Part shown: positions 15,836-47,466 of the stretch, one piece after another
Layout: each line of letters opens with the position of its first letter
How positions within the stretch are numbered: position 1 is the stretch's first letter
NCBI GenBank assembly: GCA_964344485.1
Contig: CAYFNF010000003.1
Location: 50,149-102,295 of the forward strand
Length of the DNA stretch: 52,147 bases
Direction: 5' to 3'
Source of the DNA: an uncultured Gammaproteobacteria bacterium
Lineage (GTDB): Bacteria; Patescibacteriota; Patescibacteriia; UBA9570; XYC2-FULL-38-9
Position numbers and translations under genes: made by a program
Notes under the pieces: model-generated
Told to the model about the DNA's origin: nothing
What the model saw: only the letters and a program-made list of their open reading frames with translations
Database searches by the model: none

Positions 15836-15863
15836 CTATAAAAACACCCTCTCGTGAGGGTGT
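15836..15863 (-). terminator. Intrinsic terminator/attenuator after ftsA
   Basis: ACACCCTC-acga-GAGGGTGT hairpin followed on the minus strand by TTTTTATAG. T-runs on both sides make it potentially bidirectional. Confidence 0.6.
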
Positions 15864-15891
15864 TTTATTTTCTGAACTTTAGTGTTCTGAA

Positions 15892-17937: not shown

Positions 17938-19302
17938 CTACGCACTATTCACATTGGAATTACTGTTGGTGTTTGTGTTTGTATTGGTGTTTGTGTTTGT
18001 ATTTGAGTTAGAATTACTGTTGGTGTTTTCGTTGGTGTTAGTGTTGGAATTTGAATTGTTGGTATTGGAGTTTGCGTTTGCATTGGCATTACTACTGTTT
18101 GTATTGCTGCTGTTCACGTTACTGTTGCTATTTTCATTGGAGTTTGAATTAGCATTACTATTACTGTTTGTTGCAGTCTTCGGCGCAGTATAGTCAAAGC
18201 TCGTCAACATCATCTCAAATGTCGTTCTAAAATTGATACTTTCCTTTGTACCAAAATTATAGTTAATCGTGATGATGTAATTATCATCAGCTAAATACCA
18301 CGTAAACTGATCAATACTCTCTACCCCTTGCAGCCCACCAGCAGTCACTGCATCCAAGTCCTCTGCTTCGATATCAGAATACATATCTGCATACCAGTCC
18401 GCAGCAGAGACTCCATCCGTATTATCAGCAACAATCACTTCTATCATTTCGCCTTCGACTGTGTCTGGAGTAAAGATTACTTCCCGCTTGGTATCATCAA
18501 GAGGGTCAGCAACCCAATCTGATGGGTAATACATCTCCCATCCGAAATCCTTATTATCGTAGGCAACCACTAAACCACTCTCAATAAGTGTTTTGTTCTT
18601 TTCATTTGGAGCAAAGAGATTCTTGACTTCAGTTCCGTCCACATACCCATCTTTATCTGTGTCAGGTTTCTGGAACTCCGTCTCATAGATGTTTTCCTCC
18701 TCGTCTGTTAAGTCGTCCTTGTCTTTGTCTCGGGTGTCTAATACATCAGAACGGTCTGGTGCGGTAGTAGTGCTATTAGTATTTGAGTTGCCGTTTGAAT
18801 TACTATTGGAATTGCTATTATTGGTATTTGGGAACAATTCACCGTTAATGTTTTCATTTAGTTCATCATTCACATTCATGTTCAGTCCGTTGATGTTCTC
18901 GTTCTCATTTTCATTCTGGTTCTGATTCTCATTTTCATTGGCGTTGTTATTCACAGGCGCTACTGCATTTGTGTTCATGTTCTCATTCGTGGGTTGCTGG
19001 GTAATCTGCAGTGCAAATACCACAATAGCTGTCATAACGATAACCACCGCTAAGACAATACCGAGAATAATAAACAACTTTTTCTTTCCGCCTCCGGATG
19101 GAGCTCCGCTTGAGTGCTCTGGTCGCTGATGTAAGAACTTCTCGGGCATGGTATAGACTTTCTTTGAAGAGAGGTTCTCGTCAGGAAGTGGAGAAGATGG
19201 TGCTTGTCCAATAGGGATGCCGCCTTTTTGACCTCCAGTGTCTGCTGGAGGTTGTTGTGGCGGTGCTTGTTGTGGCGGTTGATTTTGAACGTTTTCAAAC
19301 AT
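17938..19302 (-). CDS. Bitopic surface protein: Pro/Gln-rich N-terminus, TM helix, Asn-rich linker, Asp-rich Ca-binding (TSP3-like) repeats, globular domain, N/S/T low-complexity tail
   Basis: 454 aa. TM helix LFIILGIVLAVVIVMTAIVVFAL. Repeats DKDKDDLTDEEE and DTDKDGYVDGTE. C-terminal (NS/NT)n tract. Confidence 0.7.
   Translation of the reverse strand: MFENVQNQPPQQAPPQQPPADTGGQKGGIPIGQAPSSPLPDENLSSKKVYTMPEKFLHQRPEHSSGAPSGGGKKKLFIILGIVLAVVIVMTAIVVFALQITQQPTNENMNTNAVAPVNNNANENENQNQNENENENINGLNMNVNDELNENINGELFPNTNNSNSNSNSNGNSNTNSTTTAPDRSDVLDTRDKDKDDLTDEEENIYETEFQKPDTDKDGYVDGTEVKNLFAPNEKNKTLIESGLVVAYDNKDFGWEMYYPSDWVADPLDDTKREVIFTPDTVEGEMIEVIVADNTDGVSAADWYADMYSDIEAEDLDAVTAGGLQGVESIDQFTWYLADDNYIITINYNFGTKESINFRTTFEMMLTSFDYTAPKTATNSNSNANSNSNENSNSNVNSSNTNSSNANANANSNTNNSNSNTNTNENTNSNSNSNTNTNTNTNTNTNSNSNVNSA
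17941..18180 (-). repeat. Imperfect hexanucleotide-type coding repeats (Asn-Ser/Asn-Thr tract); a second Asn-rich tract lies at about 18770..18955
   Basis: The plus strand shows reiterated gttggt/gtttgt/attgga units encoding NSNSNTNTNTN.. on the minus strand. Confidence 0.6.
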
Positions 19303-19305
19303 AGG

Positions 19306-20091
19306 TTATTGGTTTTGATTTTGTTCGTTATATTCTTTAATGACATTTACCACATCAAGAAGTTTCCCGTCTCCATTCGGATTATAGAAATTCCGAACTT
19401 CTTCTCCATCCGAATATCCGTCTTTGTCTGTATCTGTGCTCATAGGGTCAGTCTTATAGATCTGCACTTCTTCTCTGTCGGTTAAGCCGTCCAAATCAGT
19501 ATCAATCATCTGGGTGTTTGTTCCTAGCTCCTTCTCCTCTTCATCTGTCAATCCATCACCGTCTGCGTCAGCCGCGAGTGGGACGGTTGTTCCGTTGCTA
19601 TTACTATTCGCAGCACTATTATTTGCATTATATGGACGCACGTTATTAAGATTCTCAACCGCTGGATTGACCTGCTGTGTACCTCCGATACCAAGCCACG
19701 AGCTCCATGTTGAGTAGTATGCAATGGCTGCTGTTACAACTAATGCGATCACCAGAACAATCAAAATGATAACGCGCAGTCTACTGCCTCGACCCACTTT
19801 GCGTGGCTTTCCAGGTTTCTGTTCTTGTGTTGGCGTAGGTGGCTGAGGTGGCGAATCAAGCGGAGGCAGTGGTGAAGCGCCCGGATCTACTGGCTCTGAA
19901 CCAGGGAATGGTAAATCAGCAGTCGGCGCTACTTGCGTTGGTCTATCTGGTCCTGAAACCGGCGCAGACGTGACTGATGGTCGCGGATCTACAGCAAAGG
20001 ACGGCTGAGCAGACGCTTGAGCCTCTACATCATTCTCGGTTTCTTGAAAAATGTCCTCCAATTGCTCTTCATTTATCGGTTGTACTGGCAT
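19306..20091 (-). CDS. Bitopic surface protein: Pro-rich N-terminus, TM helix, three Asp-rich Ca-binding (TSP3-like) repeats; architectural paralogue of 17938..19302
   Basis: DADGDGLTDEEE, DTDLDGLTDREE, DTDKDGYSDGEE. TM helix VIILIVLVIALVVTAAIAYY. The track start at 20127 is TTG and overlaps the giant gene. The ATG at 20091 (MPVQPINEE) lies 14 nt after the giant gene's stop. Confidence 0.7.
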   Translation of the reverse strand: MPVQPINEEQLEDIFQETENDVEAQASAQPSFAVDPRPSVTSAPVSGPDRPTQVAPTADLPFPGSEPVDPGASPLPPLDSPPQPPTPTQEQKPGKPRKVGRGSRLRVIILIVLVIALVVTAAIAYYSTWSSWLGIGGTQQVNPAVENLNNVRPYNANNSAANSNSNGTTVPLAADADGDGLTDEEEKELGTNTQMIDTDLDGLTDREEVQIYKTDPMSTDTDKDGYSDGEEVRNFYNPNGDGKLLDVVNVIKEYNEQNQNQ

Positions 20092-20105
20092 AGATATGAT
20101 CTTAA

Positions 20106-23100
20106 TTATGGAGTGGACTCTGCCCAATTACCCATTCCAATACTCTCTAGTCCGTAATTATAACACGCACACTCAGCGGTCACCGTTGCATCAGTACATG
20201 GAGTATAGTCCCCATGGATCCAATCTTCAGTTCCGTCAGCGGAACCGTCATATTCCATATGTGAGTAGAGATACAAATTGGTTGAATCCGCTGGATCTAC
20301 CTTATACATATATGTATGCGAGTGCTCAGGACAGTAGAACTCTGTATTCACTGGGTCCCAGCACGTTCCAGACTCGTCCCAATACTCGTTTAGATCCGCG
20401 TCGTATTCACAATCCCCGTCTGTGGTCTCATCGCCAAGCCCTTCGTCATAGATCCACGGTTCATCACCAGCGTTCCATGGGTCATCTTGATCAGCAGCAT
20501 AGAAGAAGTTATATGGATCTGTTGGTAGTGTCACGCCATAGATATTACCGACCGCGCCTTGCCATGAACTCCAGACACTTGTGGTAAGTTCTTCGATATA
20601 TGAACCGTATTCATCACTCTGTGGGTATGGATACTCGGTCGCCCCTTCTTCAGTGATATACTCTGAAATATGGACTGCCAGCGTTCCAAAATCATTCACA
20701 CGGTTTGTATCGCGCGTCAACTTATCTTTATCTGACGCATCACAATCTCCGTAATCTAGATCGTGGTTAAACATCAGATAATCCATAACCTGTGATTCGA
20801 TGTTCTCCATTCCATCTGCTTCAGTATCAAACGAGAACACGTACATGTTGTTATATAACGAATCATCTGCTGGATTAGAGTCCTGAATGATGTTTCCTGC
20901 AGCGATGTAGTACGTATCACCAGTCGTACCTGCGTAGTATCCATCTATAGTGGTATCACTGATCGACCCATCTTCATCAACAAACGTCTCGTACCACTCT
21001 TCTGGACTTAAGTTATATTCATTATCAAACACCCGAATCCCAAATACTTGCTCGGGGTTATCTGAATTTGAGAACAGATACTGTAGGAACCAGTCATCAT
21101 CACCGCCGCCTTCATTTACCACAATATTATCCATCTCCGGAGTATCATCATCCATACAGTAGATTAAGCGGAAGTTCTGCTCATATTCTGGCGTACCACG
21201 AGACACAAACTCATAATACTTTGAATCCGCCGAAGGATCTTCATCATCAATATACTCCCATATCACGCTCTCTTCGCAGTATGTCACTGATAATCGGGAT
21301 TTTCCGGTGATTGACCCAGTCCATCCAGTAAGAGGCGAAATAGTTGCGCTTAAGCTTGTGCTATCATGATTCTCCTCTCCGCTAACCACTGCTTGGGTTT
21401 CACTCGTTGCATCCGGAGTCATACAATGATGTCCGTATGTACAGATCTCTCCGCTACCACAATCAGCGGTTTCATCACAGAGATCAAGACAGACATTCTC
21501 TATACACCGTTGATTGTCGCCACAATCTGCGTGGATATCACAACTCGTCTCAAACTCCTCTACTTCTGCAACCTCCACCCACGCGATATTCTCACAACTA
21601 TCTTCATCATAATACGGATCCCAGGTAAACTCCCATCCCATTTCATCAGTAGAGTACAGTTCTTGGCCGTCTGATGCGAGAACGGTCGCGGTGTATGACG
21701 TAGAACCATTTGGCTCTGTAAATGTATGGTGTCGCTTTCCAGTATCATCATTTATTAATTCTACTTGTGTCGGGAGACAGAAATCATTTTGTAACTCTAT
21801 AGTAACTATCTCTGTTCCGTCTCGAAGTGCGAGCCCAGAATCAACGCTACGAATACTGCTGGTATCTACAGTAGACTCATCTTGAAAGTAATCATTTTCA
21901 CTATTCAATGTCATTCTATACTGTGCTCCGGTCACAAATGCCCCTGGCTCCACGCGGAGCCTTGTGGTATAGGTTTCGCTAAATTCGCAGAGCTCTGGAT
22001 CATCTGTACAATCTGCACCGTCATAGTAACCACCGTCACAGACATTCGCTACGCACGTACCTGAATCATCTGCTTGCTGAATCATAGTAGCAATATCAAT
22101 CTCTGTGATTACTGTATCCTCATCTTGTTCACAAAGTGTCGCGTCTGCACTACAGTCCTCGCCATCGTGTGCTCCTCCATCACAGTACCCCCCATCACAC
22201 GTTCCAGTTCCTGCGAGCTGTTCAATATCAATATTAAACTCTGCAGTATCATTGCCGTCGACCACTCCGTCACCGTTATGATCACAGTTATGATCCTCAT
22301 CAGTGTAGTCTCCGTCTGCGTCATCGTCGACATTTACTAAGTCCTGATCATCAATATACCCATCATCATTCACATCTTCGTTATCACACTTACTCGTAGT
22401 GAACTTCATCTCTTCGCTAAATGTTATTGTGAACCATCTATTTGGACAAATGCCAGTCTCTCCATCTGATGGGTTTGAGGAGACAAATGTTGGCCGCCAA
22501 TCACAACACCAGTTTGCAGGGTCATCAATTGCACCTAAATCATCCGCCCAGTAACACCCGCGATACGCTGGACATTGATCATTGTCAACCACGTCGCCAT
22601 CAAAACACTCTGCACAATACATGTCCGTACAGACACCCTCGACACAATCAAATCCATGATCACAGTCTCCAGTCTCAGTACACGACTCTTCGCACGTTCC
22701 ATCTACACAGACTTCGTCTCCATCACAGTCTTCATGTGTTTCACATGGGGTAGTACATTCACCATCGATACATTCGTCGTCTGGGTCCGGACAATCATCA
22801 TCTGCTGTACACTCTGCTGGAGTGCAGACACCGTCCACACAATCGGAGCCCGGAGGACAGTCTTCTCCATCTTCACAATGAATATAGAAATTAATTCCAT
22901 TACTATCACACGAGTTCGCTTCTGCGTATGCGTCTCCGCTCGCAGCAAGATCTTCATCATTAACAGGCACCTCTGCTGAGGTCATCTCGTCTGATATATA
23001 TGCAAAGTTGTCACCTGCGGTTGGACCGTCTGGGTGTGCAAATATATTATTTAATGTATCAGTCTCACCCACAGCGTCTGGATCATAGAAGTTAATTCCT

Positions 23101-26100
23101 GAGAACCATACTGTGTCATGACCGTCTCCAGAGTTCGGATTTAACGCACAGAGAATCGGTACACCCTCTTCCGGAGCATCTACACATTGCTCTTCTACGT
23201 ATAATGGAGATGCTTCAGTGGTTAATTCAAATCTACTTGTCACTGTTACATCCACGCTCTGCTCTGGTGCAATCTCATCTTCACCTGGTACGGTAACAAT
23301 AATCTGTGTATTGGACCATGATTCATTTCCACATGGATACTCGGGCTCTATGCCTCCGACAGATACAGAGCCACTACCCTTGGAAGAACCGAAGTAACAT
23401 CCGTCGATAGTAATTGCGCTATCATTCCCTTGTCGAGCCGGGGAGATCTCTTCGATGACCGGAGTACAGTACCCGTCTACACACGAGCTATCTCCTCCAC
23501 ACTCAGTACAGTCATCATCTGTTTCACATGCATTACAATACGCATCTGCTTCATCGCCAGAGATACACTCACCGTACGGAGTGTCGATATTACAACATCC
23601 GGAGTTACATTCACGATTCCATGAACACGTGACCGTGTAATCTAAAGTATTCGAACAATATGTATCATCAGCACAGCTGGTTTCATCACCCTCTGCGGTA
23701 ATCACACGATAATCTTTTGAAACACTATTCGTTGCTCCATCAGGCACAATCGAATAGACCAATGTATCACTCCATGACGTTACTTCACCAGATAAGCGAT
23801 CATCGTCTTTATCGATCCAACTAGACCATCCTTCATCCTCGCCCATCATCTGCCCTGCGGTGTAGGTAGAAGTTCCTTCAGGCCCATCGTCTGGACTAAT
23901 TTTACAAATACCAGCACGAGGAGTGTCATTTATTTCAAAATCATCGTAATCACTTTCGTCCGAGTCTCCGTATCTAGTCTCCACTTCAATATCATATGTA
24001 CCGTTATCCACTGCTGTCTCTCGGATATCATCATCATCAGCATCCCAATCTTCTGGGACCTCTGCAATGATATACTCCGACGTCCAGGTATCTTCACATA
24101 ACTCTGAGTCTGGCCACTCTGTCTCTGCGTGTACTAAATCATCGTCCGAATTCCACCAGACATTTCCCTTAGCTGAACCAAACATACAACCGTAAATTGT
24201 GACCCAAGTGCCTTGAGCTCCATTTAAAGGAGTGAAATCTCGTGTAGATGGGTCGTTCGGTGGAGACGATTGACTCGCAGTATCAATGACCACTGGTGTA
24301 CAGTGACTCGTCTCTTCATTACACGTAGAGCCTGGACAGCTTTCACAATCTTCATCCGACTCACAGAACCCTAGATCTACAACGAATGCTGCGTCATCCT
24401 CTAATTCGCCAACCGTGGTGCGTACGTAAGTAGTACCTTCATTCTCTTCGTCATTGCCTGCAACATACACTGTTTCTTCTGCGTCTGAATCTGGTTGACC
24501 TGGAGAGAATGTGCCAATATCTTCATCGTCGATTGTCCATGACCATGTCATGGAGTTTGGATTAATTAAATTACAATCAGAGACTGCGGTGCCATCAAAA
24601 TCTTCGGAATCACCGTATTCATTCTCTATGGTCCAACTTGGATCAACAACGATATTTGTTGCTTCGCATGTATCTTCAGTGTCATCTACCTTAAACGTAT
24701 ACGTATATTCCTCTGCCATAGGAACTCCATCATCCAAGCTCGAAATGCCGGTTGATAGCGTTACTTTGTACCAGGTGTTCTGATCCATATTGGACGCTGG
24801 AGTAAACTTGAATCCGTAGTAATAGGTGTCGTTCACATACACAGTATATCCGGTGTCTAATGAACCCGAAATATCAGACGGTGTTGCGGATTCGTCAAAC
24901 GAGTCTCCTTCATTGTACTTTTGAATGCGCACTGTGCCGGTTCCACCAACATCATACGTCAACCCAGACACTTCTTGATCAAAGAGTACTGCGATAATCC
25001 CGTTTCGGCATGCGTCTGTTTGATTTGGTTGTGGGTTTGGTATTGGATAGATATCTTCATCCTCATCACACGTCCCCCACTCTACGACCTGCGGTCCTGA
25101 TGTACATGGAATATAGTACGAACGCATATTACTGTTTCCAAGCTCTTCATGGCTAACCACTACATAATACGTATCATTGCCCATGTCTCCAGAGGTCGTG
25201 AAATCTACTTGAGAGTCAATCCATGAATCTACTGCTGACGGTTCGTACTCTACATACTCTGAGGTAGTCATGTAGATCGTGCTGTCCCCTTGGTCGTCTC
25301 CAAATGAATCACCAGTCACATAGACATCCTTTCCTCCTGAGATATCACAATTACTTGGGTCTGCTAATTCATTCTCTACAGAAACAACGGAACAGAGATT
25401 TGGCCGAGTGGTGGTTGAAAATGTGAAGCTCCTCCAGTTCGAGTAGTACCCTTCACGTGCCATGCTCTCGTTTTCTCCTTCATTATGAATCACCTGCACC
25501 ATTGCAACATCTCCAGTAGCCCATGTACCAGTTCCTCCATCCGAATCTGTATACTCTTCTGGGACAATTGCTAATATTTCTTCTGGCTCCGACACATCTC
25601 CACACTCTTCCGGCAATACCAGCTCTGATGTGCGGACCACACCGTCTTCTTGAATCATGCGCATCACGACTGTACCTGTGGTCTCACCAAAGTTCTCACC
25701 AATAATGGTCATGTATTGACCCACTGCTCCGTCGTCTGGGTTTAACCAGGAGATATACGGCTGATTGTCTTCTAGACCAACAGTGTCGTCAGAGTACGCG
25801 CTTGGGACATCAGCAACACTAATTCTGAAGTTCTGATCTGGCTTGGTGCCAACTGGAATCATAGTACGCAGTTCGGTATTGCTGGTGTATGGATTGTCAC
25901 ACTCCGTACCAGCACCTTCGTTTTCACAATCTTGATTCGTGTCACAGAGTACTTCATGGCCGTCTACTAATCCGTCACAAATACCAAATGATCCGATACA
26001 TTCATCTCCAACTGAGGTATCAGACGTTAAATTCCCAAAGTGATCCACATTGAAACAAGAGTTCGTGCCTTCAGCAGCGTAAATGCGACTACCTTCAAAC

Positions 26101-27680
26101 CAGACCTCTGGATGTGGAATCAAATACAATCCTGTAATGAGTAATCCATACGCTGGCTCACCCACACAAAACCCACCATCACAATCTTGGGATGCACATT
26201 CATAGTCATACGTACACGCTTCTCCCTCCATGAGCAGGCCAGCATATTCACCGTACCACCACGCTGGGGGAGTAAAGCTCTCAATAATTGGAGTACATTC
26301 GGAGTTCTCTCCAGTCTCCCACAGAATAGAATCTTCTGACTCGCCAGCATCTGGGTCATACCCCCAGAAGTTATCAACGGTCGCACCTTCAGAGACTACG
26401 TCGTAGTTACCGTCTAATGGGTTGCCGCAGGAGTCAGTAATTGCGCCTTCAAAATCATTGTCTGCATCACCAGCGTATAGTCTAAATCCATACCACGTGT
26501 ATTCATCTAATGCACTCGCTGGCCGAACCATAGCGTAATCAAATTGCGAACCAAAGCTCCATCCATTTAACTCTCGTGCATCAGTCCAGTCTGGCATGGT
26601 CTCTGGATCCCCTTCTTCCCATACACCAGCTTCATCAACTAAGAATGACTCATCGTCGTTGAATGAGGTAATACGCATAGACTCTGAGAAGTCTACGCTC
26701 ACTACAGTATTCAGACAGACATTAGTCTCTTCATCAGCCGGGAATGGGGATTCGCTGTTCTCCTGCACTGTTGGTGGTATCACATCCGTTTCCGTGCCCG
26801 TAATGAAAGTAAAATCATATGCTGTTAATGCATAACGATCATCAACTTCATCATCCGGAGTGTCATCTTCACTCATGATATCTGAAGTGAGATAGACATG
26901 GTAGTTCGTGTCTTCGGCAAAATCTTCATCTGGCACGATATTAAAATAGTACGTTGAATCACCTGGGCCGAACCCAATATCGCCAGGCACAGTATCTCCT
27001 ACACAATTGTATGTACCGTCTTCATCTTCATCCGTGCACGTACTTGAAACACATTCATCATGGCTCGTACATTCATCTCCGTCATATAAGGTACCGTCAT
27101 CATTAATAATATAGAATGAATCCGCGGTTACTGAGTCTTGATCTACATGTCGATTCACACGAATAGTCACGTCAGTACATAGATAGACACCGGAATCCCC
27201 GTTAGATGGATTAGTAGCCAGTACATAGTAATCATACCCCGAAGGTGTAAAATCTCCCGAGATACAACCGTATCCACTACACGGCATGATAGTACTGGTT
27301 CCTGTTGCATCTGAAATTACACCAAGTAACCACAACACAATTCCCCAAGCAGAGAGGATAATCAGCAAGCCAATCAGTGCGTTCTTGAGAATGGCTTTTG
27401 CATTTGCAACCTTTTCTTCATTGCCACCCGAAGTCATCCATACAAATCCACCGTACAACACCAACACCACAGCAAAGATCGCTAAGATACCTAACACCCA
27501 TGCAAGCAAATACAATACCACCTCAACCGGACTCCGATCACTTAATGCAATACCTTCGTAACTCGTATTGACTTGCGCAAGTGCTGGAACAGCGCTAGTG
27601 ACGAATAGAATGGTCAGGAGTGCTGACCGACGGACTATTCGACGCAATCTGTGAAAGGGTCGGTGAGAATCAAGCTTCAT
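20106..27680 (-). CDS. Giant (2,524 aa) acidic, Cys-rich surface protein with an N-terminal VirB2/TrbC-like pilin membrane module
   Basis: Uninterrupted 7.6-kb ORF. The N-terminus has a signal-like LLTILFVTSAVPALA followed by two TM helices flanking YGGFVWMTSGGNEEKVANAKAILKNALIGL. The remainder is D/E-rich and K/R-poor, with repeated CxxxxDCxxxxxCxDGxC knots, IPT/TIG-like segments (GAVGQYMTIIGENFG, GAQGTWVTIYGCMFG, GNDSAITIDGCYFG) and EF-hand/dockerin-like loops. Confidence 0.85.
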   Translation of the reverse strand: MKLDSHRPFHRLRRIVRRSALLTILFVTSAVPALAQVNTSYEGIALSDRSPVEVVLYLLAWVLGILAIFAVVLVLYGGFVWMTSGGNEEKVANAKAILKNALIGLLIILSAWGIVLWLLGVISDATGTSTIMPCSGYGCISGDFTPSGYDYYVLATNPSNGDSGVYLCTDVTIRVNRHVDQDSVTADSFYIINDDGTLYDGDECTSHDECVSSTCTDEDEDGTYNCVGDTVPGDIGFGPGDSTYYFNIVPDEDFAEDTNYHVYLTSDIMSEDDTPDDEVDDRYALTAYDFTFITGTETDVIPPTVQENSESPFPADEETNVCLNTVVSVDFSESMRITSFNDDESFLVDEAGVWEEGDPETMPDWTDARELNGWSFGSQFDYAMVRPASALDEYTWYGFRLYAGDADNDFEGAITDSCGNPLDGNYDVVSEGATVDNFWGYDPDAGESEDSILWETGENSECTPIIESFTPPAWWYGEYAGLLMEGEACTYDYECASQDCDGGFCVGEPAYGLLITGLYLIPHPEVWFEGSRIYAAEGTNSCFNVDHFGNLTSDTSVGDECIGSFGICDGLVDGHEVLCDTNQDCENEGAGTECDNPYTSNTELRTMIPVGTKPDQNFRISVADVPSAYSDDTVGLEDNQPYISWLNPDDGAVGQYMTIIGENFGETTGTVVMRMIQEDGVVRTSELVLPEECGDVSEPEEILAIVPEEYTDSDGGTGTWATGDVAMVQVIHNEGENESMAREGYYSNWRSFTFSTTTRPNLCSVVSVENELADPSNCDISGGKDVYVTGDSFGDDQGDSTIYMTTSEYVEYEPSAVDSWIDSQVDFTTSGDMGNDTYYVVVSHEELGNSNMRSYYIPCTSGPQVVEWGTCDEDEDIYPIPNPQPNQTDACRNGIIAVLFDQEVSGLTYDVGGTGTVRIQKYNEGDSFDESATPSDISGSLDTGYTVYVNDTYYYGFKFTPASNMDQNTWYKVTLSTGISSLDDGVPMAEEYTYTFKVDDTEDTCEATNIVVDPSWTIENEYGDSEDFDGTAVSDCNLINPNSMTWSWTIDDEDIGTFSPGQPDSDAEETVYVAGNDEENEGTTYVRTTVGELEDDAAFVVDLGFCESDEDCESCPGSTCNEETSHCTPVVIDTASQSSPPNDPSTRDFTPLNGAQGTWVTIYGCMFGSAKGNVWWNSDDDLVHAETEWPDSELCEDTWTSEYIIAEVPEDWDADDDDIRETAVDNGTYDIEVETRYGDSDESDYDDFEINDTPRAGICKISPDDGPEGTSTYTAGQMMGEDEGWSSWIDKDDDRLSGEVTSWSDTLVYSIVPDGATNSVSKDYRVITAEGDETSCADDTYCSNTLDYTVTCSWNRECNSGCCNIDTPYGECISGDEADAYCNACETDDDCTECGGDSSCVDGYCTPVIEEISPARQGNDSAITIDGCYFGSSKGSGSVSVGGIEPEYPCGNESWSNTQIIVTVPGEDEIAPEQSVDVTVTSRFELTTEASPLYVEEQCVDAPEEGVPILCALNPNSGDGHDTVWFSGINFYDPDAVGETDTLNNIFAHPDGPTAGDNFAYISDEMTSAEVPVNDEDLAASGDAYAEANSCDSNGINFYIHCEDGEDCPPGSDCVDGVCTPAECTADDDCPDPDDECIDGECTTPCETHEDCDGDEVCVDGTCEESCTETGDCDHGFDCVEGVCTDMYCAECFDGDVVDNDQCPAYRGCYWADDLGAIDDPANWCCDWRPTFVSSNPSDGETGICPNRWFTITFSEEMKFTTSKCDNEDVNDDGYIDDQDLVNVDDDADGDYTDEDHNCDHNGDGVVDGNDTAEFNIDIEQLAGTGTCDGGYCDGGAHDGEDCSADATLCEQDEDTVITEIDIATMIQQADDSGTCVANVCDGGYYDGADCTDDPELCEFSETYTTRLRVEPGAFVTGAQYRMTLNSENDYFQDESTVDTSSIRSVDSGLALRDGTEIVTIELQNDFCLPTQVELINDDTGKRHHTFTEPNGSTSYTATVLASDGQELYSTDEMGWEFTWDPYYDEDSCENIAWVEVAEVEEFETSCDIHADCGDNQRCIENVCLDLCDETADCGSGEICTYGHHCMTPDATSETQAVVSGEENHDSTSLSATISPLTGWTGSITGKSRLSVTYCEESVIWEYIDDEDPSADSKYYEFVSRGTPEYEQNFRLIYCMDDDTPEMDNIVVNEGGGDDDWFLQYLFSNSDNPEQVFGIRVFDNEYNLSPEEWYETFVDEDGSISDTTIDGYYAGTTGDTYYIAAGNIIQDSNPADDSLYNNMYVFSFDTEADGMENIESQVMDYLMFNHDLDYGDCDASDKDKLTRDTNRVNDFGTLAVHISEYITEEGATEYPYPQSDEYGSYIEELTTSVWSSWQGAVGNIYGVTLPTDPYNFFYAADQDDPWNAGDEPWIYDEGLGDETTDGDCEYDADLNEYWDESGTCWDPVNTEFYCPEHSHTYMYKVDPADSTNLYLYSHMEYDGSADGTEDWIHGDYTPCTDATVTAECACYNYGLESIGMGNWAESTP

Positions 27681-28475: not shown

Positions 28476-28504
28476 AATATAACACTATTTTATTACTGTG
28501 TCAA
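28476..28504 (-). promoter_or_regulatory. Near-consensus sigma70 promoter of rpsU (and probably the downstream co-directional run)
   Basis: Minus strand: TTGACA (28504..28499), 17-nt spacer, TATATT (28481..28476). Confidence 0.6.
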
Positions 28505-35509: not shown

Positions 35510-36214
35510 TTATAAACCTAATTGAATCGCTGCTCCGCACAGCACGATCGCTCCACCAGCGAAAATGTGGCTAAACCGCTCTAGTGACTGAACGCGTAGT
35601 CGTTTCACACCTGCAGTCAACACACCGACTGTTACCAACATCGTGCTTATAGTCACAATTGCAAATATACTCGCAATCAATATCATACTGCCTATACTCA
35701 TCTCTGCAGCTGGATACATAAGTATAGGAATGAGCGGTTCACACGGACCAAGGATAAAAATAATGAATAACGCCCACGGAGTCATCCTTTTTTTTGCTGT
35801 ATTTTCATGAACATGTGCATGGTCGTGCGTATGTACGTGCTCATGAGTGTGTGGAATACCGTCTTCATGAGTATGCAAGTGGGTATGTGGAGTATTCTTT
35901 ATCGCTCGACGAATTCCCCACAGTAAGTAGGCCAATCCAAACGAGAGCAACGCCCAGCCAGCGATGGTTCCTCGAAATGCTTCAATTGCTTCTAATGAAA
36001 GCACTGCAGCTCCTATGGTGATTCCGATCACTCCAAGTATTATCGAGCTTGCTACATGCCCCGCACCACATAGCAGAGTGATCTTTATGGTCTTTTTTTT
36101 GGACCAATTCCTTGCTTTTGCCATTGCAACGAACGGTATGTAGTGGTCCGGGCCGAGCAAGGTGTGAAATAACCCGATAGACGCAGCTGTGATAGCTAAA
36201 ATGCCTAGTTCCAT
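35510..36214 (-). CDS. Polytopic metal-ion transporter with a His-rich loop (NicO/RcnA-like; Ni/Co-type is a guess)
   Basis: 234 aa. FHTLLGPDHYIP in TM1. Central loop HTHLHTHEDGIPHTHEHVHTHDHAHVHEN. About 6 TM helices. Confidence 0.5.
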   Translation of the reverse strand: MELGILAITAASIGLFHTLLGPDHYIPFVAMAKARNWSKKKTIKITLLCGAGHVASSIILGVIGITIGAAVLSLEAIEAFRGTIAGWALLSFGLAYLLWGIRRAIKNTPHTHLHTHEDGIPHTHEHVHTHDHAHVHENTAKKRMTPWALFIIFILGPCEPLIPILMYPAAEMSIGSMILIASIFAIVTISTMLVTVGVLTAGVKRLRVQSLERFSHIFAGGAIVLCGAAIQLGL

Positions 36215-46071: not shown

Positions 46072-47466
46072 TTACCGTGCTTTACGCATTTGGCGCACAA
46101 ACAACACTCCAGAGACTACTATTAATAGCACACCGCCAATTATTAATACCACTACCCAGTTAATTGATGAGAAAAAACCACCTTCTTCAGCTTCTGTCTC
46201 TGCAACAGCTGTCTCATCTCCCTGTACAGTGAATTTCACTTTCTTAGTTGACTCACCAGACTCCTTCTCAGTCACTTGAACGTACTGAACGCCCGAAACT
46301 AGCGAAGGAGTACCTTGAAAGCTCCAGAACCCAGAACTATCAGCAGTGGTAGTATACCGTGTTACTGCGCAACAGAATTCAATGGTGACATCTGTTTCTG
46401 GAGTTGCATTACCAGTCAGCGTAATCTGCTCTCCAACATGCACCATTATCTCAGAAGAGCTGTACGTATTCTTCTGTAAGTCGTAGGTTTTATCTTCACT
46501 CGAAAGTGTTAGAATAGTCACTACTTCACTCTCTGTATCGTCCTCTTCCTCGTCTTCCTCCTCATCTTCTTCTTCAGTGTCTTCGTCCTCTTCGTCAGTT
46601 TCCTCTTCTTCTTCCTCATCTGTCTCCTCTTCCTCGTCTTCCTCCTCATCTTCTTCTTCAGTGTCTTCGTCCTCTTCGTCAGTTTCCTCTTCTTCTTCCT
46701 CATCTGTCTCCTCTTCCTCGTCTTCCTCCTCATCTTCTTCAACTGCTACAGTGGAAAATGTAGACTCAGAGCCTTTGTACACCACCTCTGTTTCATCCTG
46801 ATTCTTTACTCGGAAGTAATATTCGGTTTCGTCGTCTAAGCCAGAGATATATGCAGTGTGGGTAGTTGATGTTTGCTCTTCTAATGGAGTTGCCGCGATG
46901 TACGTTCCGCTTGATGTACCGTACTCTACTTGACCAGATGTTGCGCTGTCAGTCGTCCAGGTCACGATTGCAGTGGAAGATGTAATCTGAGAGACAGTCA
47001 CTCCAGAGATGGTCACGGAATCGCTAGAACTATCAGTTGTGCTATCATCTGAAGAATTCGTATTTGTTGTCGTGTCATCATCAGACTCCTCTTCTGCAGA
47101 TTGCACAACAAACGAACCAGACTGATTGGATTCGTCACACGTTGTACATTTATATGTGTACGTACCAGCGGTATCAGCAGTAAATGTAACGGTCACCGTC
47201 TCTCCTGGAGATACAGATTGGTTAATGCCAAATGCTGACAGTTTAAAATTCCGCTCGTCGTCAGCGCTCGTGATGTTTAAAGTGACTGAGTCCCCCTCAT
47301 TAACAGTGATTGCAGACGGACTGAACCCTCGCTCACTTGCTGTGACAGTGTATGACTGTGCTGCTGCGCGAGCTACAGAGGGAACTATGAGCGCGGCACA
47401 CAGGATGACTGCACTCCATAACACCAATCTCATGAATGGCGTGGTTTGTACTGTTGTGTGTTTCAT
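46072..47466 (-). CDS. Secreted, C-terminally membrane-anchored protein: cupredoxin-like domain (ligands degenerate), FN3-like domain, poly-acidic repeat, Ig-like domain
   Basis: Signal peptide ..LIVPSVARAAAQ. ITVNEGDSVTLNITS..GETVTVTFTADTAGTYTYKCTTC (cupredoxin_1-like). IVTWTTDSATSGQVEYG..YYFRV (FN3-like). (E/D/T)n tract. C-terminal TM helix VVVLIIGGVLLIVVSGVLFV followed by RQMRKAR. Confidence 0.7.
   Translation of the reverse strand: MKHTTVQTTPFMRLVLWSAVILCAALIVPSVARAAAQSYTVTASERGFSPSAITVNEGDSVTLNITSADDERNFKLSAFGINQSVSPGETVTVTFTADTAGTYTYKCTTCDESNQSGSFVVQSAEEESDDDTTTNTNSSDDSTTDSSSDSVTISGVTVSQITSSTAIVTWTTDSATSGQVEYGTSSGTYIAATPLEEQTSTTHTAYISGLDDETEYYFRVKNQDETEVVYKGSESTFSTVAVEEDEEEDEEEETDEEEEEETDEEDEDTEEEDEEEDEEEETDEEEEEETDEEDEDTEEEDEEEDEEEDDTESEVVTILTLSSEDKTYDLQKNTYSSSEIMVHVGEQITLTGNATPETDVTIEFCCAVTRYTTTADSSGFWSFQGTPSLVSGVQYVQVTEKESGESTKKVKFTVQGDETAVAETEAEEGGFFSSINWVVVLIIGGVLLIVVSGVLFVRQMRKAR
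46542..46738 (-). repeat. Perfect 84-bp tandem repeat (2 full copies plus about 29 bp) encoding a 28-aa poly-acidic unit
   Basis: The unit cctcttcctcgtcttcctcctcatcttcttcttcagtgtcttcgtcctcttcgtcagtttcctcttcttcttcctcatctgtct starts at 46542 and again at 46626, with a partial third copy from 46710. It is in frame (84 = 28 codons). Confidence 0.9.

Follow-up and report, generated by a model that had tools for sequence, protein, structure and literature searches.

A giant predicted surface protein of Patescibacteria with an N-terminal type IV secretion system pilin module

Patescibacteria, or candidate phyla radiation (CPR) bacteria, may account for much of bacterial diversity. Most of them spend their lives on other cells, yet only a handful of their contact structures have been described: type IV pili are well documented, a type IV secretion system (T4SS) with unexplained VirB2-like pilins is essential in the one strain tested, and a chaperone-usher-like Pam pilus was reported in 2026. 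A survey of T4SSs in 3,035 Patescibacteria genomes recovered VirB2-like pilins and no adhesins, with a pilin array and/or nearby virB4/T4SS genes in 1,135 of 1,948 assemblies (PMC12102498). We analysed a stretch of 52,147 nucleotides (nt) from contig CAYFNF010000003.1 (hereafter the window), which belongs to an ultra-small, Kerfeldbacteria-type CPR bacterium, and followed up an earlier note, written from its letters alone, on a protein of 2,524 amino acids (aa) that we call the giant. The stand-alone CPR pilins (Pfam family PF18895), such as those of the VirB2-like arrays of Southlakia epibionticum and TM7x, resemble the giant over their whole precursor; they lack, however, its 2,400-residue extension and are encoded in arrays or T4SS clusters, whereas the giant lies in a housekeeping block. 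Measured against that family, the giant has the score and the architecture of a member but exceeds the typical small size (~100-140 aa), and neither a pilin array nor virB4 lies near it in the 52-kb window or in seven related loci. The canonical conjugative pilins VirB2, TrbC and TraA (PF04956) have the same predicted signal peptide and helical hairpin as the giant, and some of its orthologues and some free pilins match PF04956, but these canonical pilins carry no large fused domain.

The earlier note had described a signal sequence, a helix, a loop and a second helix at the N-terminus of the giant, had recognised in them the signature of stand-alone CPR pilins, and had proposed a search with pilin-domain hidden Markov models (HMMs) as a check. 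The Pfam profile T4SS_pilin (PF18895) matched significantly, with 44.6 bits for the whole protein and 48.2 bits for the N-terminal segment (cut-off 26.6), over residues 50-118, covering positions 4-71 of the 71-position profile. Residues 1-135, used as a query, retrieved 78 stand-alone proteins 88-193 aa long, mostly 118-140 aa; each of these matches PF18895 and some match PF04956, and the giant's module is 45-55% identical to the closest stand-alone CPR pilins (119 aa). When aligned with 13 free pilins, the giant is collinear with them through signal peptide, helix 1, loop and helix 2; the cleavage context A-x-A/Q-V-N-T-S is common to both, the loop W-M-T-(S/A)-(G/A)-G-N-E-E-K-V-x-x-A-K is invariant, and the free pilins terminate at ...D-A-T-G, exactly where the ectodomain of the giant starts. 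Hydropathy shows a signal peptide with a basic n-region and a hydrophobic core ahead of ALA/QVNTS, and the Pfam scan places lepB within the same conserved block as the giant. In an AlphaFold2 model built from an alignment of 20 orthologue N-termini (mean predicted local distance difference test score, pLDDT, 84), the mature module consists of helix 1 (residues 51-82), the loop SGGNE (83-87) and helix 2 (88-125), with a block-mean pLDDT of ~84-91 in the helices, so that hydropathy, modelling and the pilin alignment all bear out the description in the earlier note. Among orthologues, no other part of the protein is as well conserved as the pilin module (60% identity overall, 76% in the loop). 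A pilin-profile search of 1.84 billion cluster representatives found 68,986 proteins at E <= 1e-3, with the giants ranking amid ordinary single-module pilins.

Several comparisons bear on how far this relationship extends. The giant itself has no match to PF04956 (VirB2/TrbC) at E <= 1, and its match to NCBIfam NF045849 (Mbov_0395 family pilin-like conjugal transfer protein; 32.4 bits, E 5.6e-8, residues 55-121) falls below the cut-off of 40. Searched against PDB sequences, the pilin profile returned no solved VirB2 or TraA and gave chance matches to V-ATPase c subunits alone. In the Foldseek search with the N-terminal model the Ig-like domain dominated and no pilin structure was returned for the hairpin, a silence that speaks neither for nor against pilin homology. 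Judged by its sequence, the N-terminus of the giant is a complete pilin precursor, beyond mere pilin-likeness, and its link to canonical VirB2 is weaker than its link to the CPR pilins. We also observed many polypeptides with 2-17 tandem T4SS-pilin modules, for example 17 modules in 1,775 aa (proteins P0176-P0318), which may be polyproteins or merged gene calls; an out-in-out hairpin can be repeated without a change in topology.

The fusion recurs. A whole-protein search identified 97 relatives of 1,558-3,756 aa in Patescibacteria, with Kerfeldbacteria, Uhrbacteria and Magasanikbacteria among the named sources. Nearly all combine PF18895 with Big_5 and optionally TIG; VWA, Laminin_G_3, DUF4215 or fn3 domains are further present in some. 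Our own pilin HMM detected the module in 97 of 97 relatives, always at the N-terminus (start at residues 3-55, end at residues 92-147), and the fused modules keep the same conserved columns as the free pilins. The earlier note had suggested looking in CPR genomes for pilin fusions longer than 1,000 aa and for conserved synteny, and these 97 relatives, together with a locus conserved in seven of seven cases (see below), answer that suggestion. In public databases the relatives are annotated as 'Ig-like domain-containing protein', 'hypothetical protein' and once (P0006, NCBI) 'pilin-like conjugal transfer protein'. The closest free pilins are encoded elsewhere, in four-gene arrays.

As the earlier note had stated, the gene is a single unbroken minus-strand open reading frame (ORF) of 7.6 kb. 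The sequence is metagenome-derived and the giant is ~300 aa longer than its orthologues, and we therefore considered whether two genes had been joined by a frameshift or a chimeric assembly. We give this explanation almost no credence: the giant is collinear from residue 1 to its end with 30 orthologues from independent assemblies (2,195-2,421 aa, 40-48% identity), which makes a frameshift or chimera unlikely, the surplus is in-frame and corresponds to additional Cys modules and Ca2+ loops (alignment and motif scan), and independent genomes have the same neighbour genes.

The composition of the giant is unusual, and the count agrees with the earlier description of a D/E-rich, K/R-poor protein: D+E amount to 21.6%, K to 0.9% and R to 2.0% (K+R 2.9%), there are 106 Cys residues (4.2%), the pI is ~4 and the net charge of the ectodomain is -475. 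Among its relatives, K amounts to 0.5-1.1% in most close orthologues and C to 2.3-6.4% across the family. The cytoplasmic proteins of the window are ordinary in composition (K 4-9%, C 0-2%), and acidity, K-depletion and Cys-richness are thus family-specific rather than proteome-wide; a halophile-type acidic proteome as the cause of the acidity was ruled out on the same grounds.

Behind the hairpin, AlphaFold2 places a disordered linker (residues 129-147) and then a confident Ig-like domain, with pLDDT >90 over residues 151-300. Pfam matches above cut-off in the ectodomain are Big_5 (four stretches, 74 bits) and TIG (53 bits), and Foldseek returned Ig-domain matches of the S-layer, invasin and LigA type, the best match of the N-terminal model being the S-layer protein SbsC (E 1.5e-5), alongside the Ig-like domains of CopC and Ldt. 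A motif scan found seven C-x5-C-x3-6-C-x4-5-C modules, which overlap Pfam families only below threshold (DUF7107 over four, the EB module over one); where the giant has four such modules (residues 1602-1684), the aligned orthologues carry one. The Ca2+-loop motifs are inserted shortly after the start of the fourth Big_5 match (residues 1729-1763) and are identified at motif level, as there is no Pfam match to EF-hand or dockerin on the giant. The modules listed in the earlier note thus divide into TIG and Ig-like domains, which Pfam confirms, and Cys modules and EF-hand-like loops, which are present as motifs with no significant Pfam match. Ectodomain identity among orthologues is mostly 29-46%. 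All features of the protein and its locus are collected in Table 1.

Table 1. Features of the giant gene and its surroundings (positions in the window; residue numbers refer to the giant).
Feature	Position	Strand	Basis
Giant pilin-fusion gene, 2,524 aa	20106..27680	-	ORF list, translation, collinearity with 30 orthologues
Sec signal peptide, residues 1-35, predicted cleavage ALA/QVNTS	27576..27680	-	Hydropathy, alignment to stand-alone pilins
Mature T4SS-pilin (VirB2-like) module, residues 36-130	27291..27575	-	PF18895, free-pilin identity, AlphaFold2, conservation
Flexible linker, residues 131-150, Gly/Ser/Thr-rich in orthologues	27231..27290	-	pLDDT <50, orthologue identity 16%
Two Big_5 (SbsA-type) Ig-like domains, residues ~151-423, the first with a 4-Cys insertion	26412..27230	-	Pfam, AlphaFold2, Foldseek
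Central run of IPT/TIG and Big_5 Ig-like domains	23238..25361	-	Pfam: TIG 774-846, Big_5 882-997, TIG 1407-1481
Four tandem 4-Cys modules, residues 1602-1684	22629..22877	-	Motif scan; weak DUF7107 and EB matches
Three EF-hand/dockerin-like Ca2+-loop motifs, residues 1769-1811	22248..22376	-	Regular expression D-x-[DN]-x-[DN]-G-x-[IVLYF]-[DNST]-x-x-[DE]
Conserved C-terminal region, residues 2136-2524, outside any Pfam family	20109..21275	-	Conservation, AlphaFold2
Downstream gene 1, single-pass membrane protein with three TSP3 Ca2+-binding repeats	19306..20127	-	TSP3_bac, 55 bits
Downstream gene 2, 454-aa single-pass membrane protein with TSP3-like repeats	17938..19302	-	Translation, tblastn
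Best sigma-70-like site (TTGACA-17-TGnTATATT) upstream of rpsU, candidate promoter of rpsU-yqeY-giant	28476..28504	-	Consensus scan, 11/12

The giant contains three hydrophobic segments in all, each of them inside residues 19-126. Its sequence and existing knowledge of VirB2-type pilins lead us to infer an N-out, cytoplasmic-loop, C-out topology, and because of this predicted topology the ectodomain (~2,400 residues) would lie outside the cell; the earlier note had placed it there as well, and the hairpin supports that placement. In accordance with a tether, hydrophobic segments are confined to the N-terminus, and no LPXTG or RTX motif is found.

Pfam scans of the window covered ~50 ORFs. The neighbourhood is a housekeeping one and includes the following genes (ComEC, GlmS, a release factor, HtrA, RNR, NrdR, FtsZ, FtsA, DgkA and YbeY, and further YqeY, S21, HIT, HisRS, LepB, LytR, Der, Pth, MgsA and Mfd). 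In seven of seven related loci with called genes, which include relatives whose best alignment is ~25% identical over 14-39% of the query and which have different accessory domains, the giant follows rpsU-yqeY and precedes one or two TSP3-repeat proteins and a protein of ~325-530 aa; after these TSP3 and membrane genes come ybeY-dgkA-ftsA-ftsZ in six of the seven loci, and mreC and a penicillin-binding protein gene (pbp2) in the seventh. Three of the seven loci have a shorter pilin fusion of 624-742 aa, with PF18895 at its N-terminus, between yqeY and the giant (L003 8121-10004, L018 5769-7997, L020 6104-7978), and the locus can thus hold two tandem pilin-anchored surface proteins in some lineages.

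Of the two genes downstream of the giant in the window, the first probably starts at the ATG at 20091, 15 nt (14 intervening bases) past the giant's stop, and the second encodes a conserved predicted extracellular domain (residues ~190-370), which no Pfam family covers and which is flanked by Asn-rich low-complexity tracts; the acidic TSP3-type repeats of both proteins are predicted to lie outside the cell. Homologues of both genes were found by tblastn after the giant in all loci for which downstream DNA was covered, including the distant loci L003, L004, L015 and L018-L020. Only 20 nt separate yqeY from the giant, with no terminator-like site between them, and the site upstream of rpsU is, as a consensus match only, the strongest sigma-70-like site in 14-31.5 kb. 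The short gap, the absence of a terminator and the promoter-like site before rpsU together suggest co-transcription with a ribosomal protein gene. The intervals from yqeY through the giant, both TSP3 genes and ybeY to dgkA are short as well, which suggests one long operon, and ftsA is separated from ftsZ by a palindromic terminator-like hairpin (15841-15866).

We read the giant, with somewhat more confidence than doubt, as a constitutively made, membrane-tethered surface fibre that acts together with both TSP3 proteins in contact with cells or particles. Sec would insert the precursor, and signal peptidase would cleave it after ALA35. Helix 1 (51-82) would then span the membrane from outside to inside, the invariant lysine-bearing SGGNEEK loop would lie at the cytoplasmic face, and helix 2 (88-125) would span back, acting as a signal-anchor that drives the export of ~2,400 residues. 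The short flexible linker would lead to ~20 beta-sandwich (Big_5/TIG) domains, with disulfide-locked 4-Cys modules and acidic Ca2+-binding loops, and a conserved head region (~390 residues) would stand at the end of a rod that may be ~50-100 nm long if extended. The three proteins together would form a standing surface structure by which these ultra-small, host-dependent bacteria touch other cells or particles. Constitutive expression is probable because the locus is a housekeeping one (rpsU-yqeY ... ybeY-dgkA-ftsA-ftsZ), and we infer membrane retention, co-transcription, stabilisation by Ca2+ and disulfides, and an adhesive role.

Known surface proteins share parts of this architecture. Giant Ig-repeat adhesins (SiiE, LapA and other RTX adhesins, the 7,651-aa adhesin of Mobiluncus, and LPXTG proteins such as PrgB) are, like the giant, long strings of Ig domains, acidic with Ca2+ motifs or cross-linked, and displayed on the surface. 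The giant differs from them in anchor and export, which would rely on an N-terminal pilin hairpin inserted via Sec, with no type I secretion system (T1SS) signal, RTX repeats or LPXTG. Specifically, the giant contains no GGxGxD motif or HemolysinCabind match, and no ABC, membrane fusion protein or TolC gene was found among the scanned window ORFs of at least 100 aa; it ends in ...GNWAESTP, with no LPXTG and no C-terminal hydrophobic segment, and there is no sortase in the window. TcpB and CofB are large minor pilins that prime and cap type IV pili, and PilY1 is a tip adhesin. They resemble the giant in joining a pilin-type membrane module to a large C-terminal domain that could prime or cap a filament and bind targets, but they belong to another filament superfamily, in which a type IV prepilin helix takes the place of the VirB2 hairpin, and are far smaller.

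Several points weigh against the tethered fibre. First, all free-pilin columns are kept in the fused module, including the small-residue positions of the helices and the invariant loop; this constraint exceeds the need of a passive anchor and hints at a shared partner (a T4SS or other pilins). Second, an adhesive role would follow by analogy with other Ig-repeat surface proteins. Third, the position beside division genes fits a structural coat equally well. The earlier note had called the protein an adhesin or host-contact fibre and not a conjugative pilin; surface anchoring is supported by the module and its topology, whereas adhesion is a reasonable expectation rather than a result, and an interaction with a T4SS or co-assembly with free pilins may still occur.

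The C-termini of conjugative pilins face the exterior, as work on the F-pilus established. The giant could be a minor or tip pilin of a CPR T4SS pilus, its hairpin extracted by VirB4-type machinery like that of a free pilin and co-polymerised with small array-encoded pilins, and its ectodomain, owing to the outward C-terminus, shown at the tip or sparsely along the pilus as the 'missing adhesin' of the Patescibacteria T4SS, in analogy to TcpB and CofB; we regard this as unlikely. The identity of the module to free pilins, with all conserved columns including the loop GNEEKv..AK, its rank among single-module pilins in the 1.84-billion-protein search, its standing as the most conserved part of the giant, and the four-gene arrays of the closest free pilins all fit such a role, as does the survey of Patescibacteria T4SSs, which turned up VirB2-like pilins and not a single adhesin; among the rows listed in Table S1 of that survey, two of four Kerfeldbacteria assemblies have VirB4 (PMC12102498). 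Conversely, no VirB4, VirB6 or type IV coupling protein gene was found in the 52-kb window, and no T4SS genes were found within 8-10 kb of the giant in the seven related loci; the gene belongs to a block of ribosomal-protein and cell-division genes instead of a T4SS cluster, and no CPR T4SS pilus is known to have been observed. The earlier note had likewise reported no VirB4, VirB6, VirD4, type IV pilus or sortase genes in the window, and the Pfam scan agrees: the sole PilM_2 match is FtsA, and there is no second pilin gene in the window.

A more far-reaching proposal, which we put forward tentatively and hold to be improbable, is that the yqeY-ybeY cassette (the giant and the two TSP3 proteins) is a conserved, hitherto unrecognised host-contact organelle of ABY1-type Patescibacteria, in which the pilin module is a working T4SS substrate, extracted by VirB4, that nucleates or caps a pilus with the 2,400-residue adhesin as its tip. 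If so, cell attachment would be physically coupled to the essential type IV secretion of CPR bacteria, and the adhesin missed by surveys would be supplied.

The Ig domains and the locus also bear on a different view, in which many hairpin-tethered copies of the giant, Ca2+-bridged with the two TSP3 proteins, form an S-layer-like coat, namely the ordered outer layer seen on ultra-small groundwater bacteria, with a mainly structural or protective role coordinated with cell division rather than an adhesive one. We consider this doubtful, and less probable than a tip pilin. The Bacillales S-layer proteins SbsA, SbsC and Sap share Big_5/SbsA-type Ig domains with the giant and are its best, still weak, structural matches: SbsC leads the matches of the N-terminal model, and Sap, SbsB and SbsC appear among those of the C-terminal model. 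A very acidic, Ca2+-motif-rich composition resembles that of known S-layer proteins, and the probably constitutive locus beside ftsA/ftsZ or mreC/pbp2 and the fast-evolving ectodomain on a conserved anchor are consistent with a coat. However, these Foldseek matches are generic Ig-like ones with low TM-scores (0.1-0.3), and a protein of 2,524 aa with ~20 beads on a string is more a fibre than a lattice unit. The giant also differs from the Bacillales proteins in that Pfam finds in it no S-layer homology (SLH) or other wall-binding module, such as one binding secondary cell wall polymer, and further in its transmembrane anchor, its length (2-3 times theirs) and its many Cys residues. Candidate S-layer proteins have been reported in Patescibacteria, and the giant's family is not named there (preprint 10.1101/2024.05.28.596244).

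The C-terminal region was modelled by AlphaFold2 (mean pLDDT 69) as an alpha/beta sandwich, a 29-residue helix and a poorly predicted Cys-rich tail, with an Ig-like domain carrying the Cys-rich insertion upstream of it. Foldseek and profile searches with the last 565 residues returned weak, generic Ig-like, S-layer and PsbP-like matches and no functional lead, and a homologue search with the last 225 residues returned one fragment only. A large, filamentous, surface-exposed protein of a host-dependent bacterium might be a contact-dependent toxin or polymorphic effector with a C-terminal toxic domain. We judge this very improbable, as the C-terminal 390 residues are conserved in orthologues rather than polymorphic and match no toxin family, and as the conserved TSP3 proteins, instead of an immunity-like small gene, lie downstream.

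Within this region, residues ~2325-2395 (window 20496-20708, minus strand) comprise a helix and the pattern 'GxYPxPQS ... LPxDPYNFFYA', a pseudopilin-like stretch. T2SSG (PF08334) matches two of 20 orthologues, one of them with 21.7 bits (cut-off 21) when the C-terminal 235 residues are scanned alone, and is below significance on the giant itself; when the C-terminal alignment was compared with three GspG sequences, hhalign gave P = 0.008 over 35 columns, which is no more than suggestive. The stretch weakly resembles, at the sequence level, the pseudopilin G domain of type II secretion and type IV pili. If this is true, the giant would begin with a T4SS pilin and carry, close to its opposite end, a pseudopilin-like head.

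Further observations concern the surroundings. A DsbD_2/CcdA-like membrane protein is encoded at 35510-36214 of the window (minus strand; 31 bits, cut-off 24.9) and could be part of the thiol-disulfide machinery that folds the 106-Cys giant. A second very acidic protein (46072-47466, minus strand; 464 aa, D+E 24.6%, K 2.6%) combines a cupredoxin-like domain with a fibronectin-type III/purple-acid-phosphatase N-terminal domain, each of them typical of exported proteins. Near the locus of a distant relative, a reverse transcriptase gene adjoins a bAvd-like gene (L019 1-1264), a pairing characteristic of diversity-generating retroelements, whose known targets include CPR surface proteins.

In the open-access literature we found no account of pilin-fused giants, whether in the T4SS survey (PMC12102498), a T4SS review (PMC12857230) or the work on Southlakia genetics (PMC10633639). 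Within the same scope, no pilin-fused giant was found in the Pam pilus preprint, which concerns unrelated Ig-fold pilins, in a giant-gene preprint, or in the literature on CPR S-layers and Kerfeldbacteria surface proteins. Within this literature the surface candidate proposed in the earlier note is so far undescribed, and what is new is the conserved combination of a known pilin fold with adhesin-type domains, and its locus.

Taken together, the T4SS pilin fold is, in addition to its known role, the foundation of the largest surface protein across a group of lineages, at a fixed position in the core genome and with two conserved partners. Tallies of 'VirB2 homologues' in CPR genomes should be read with caution, since some of the proteins counted are probably something other than simple pilus subunits. 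The giant is a testable candidate for attachment, a pilus tip or a surface layer, and a good one for the means by which these cells make contact with their surroundings.

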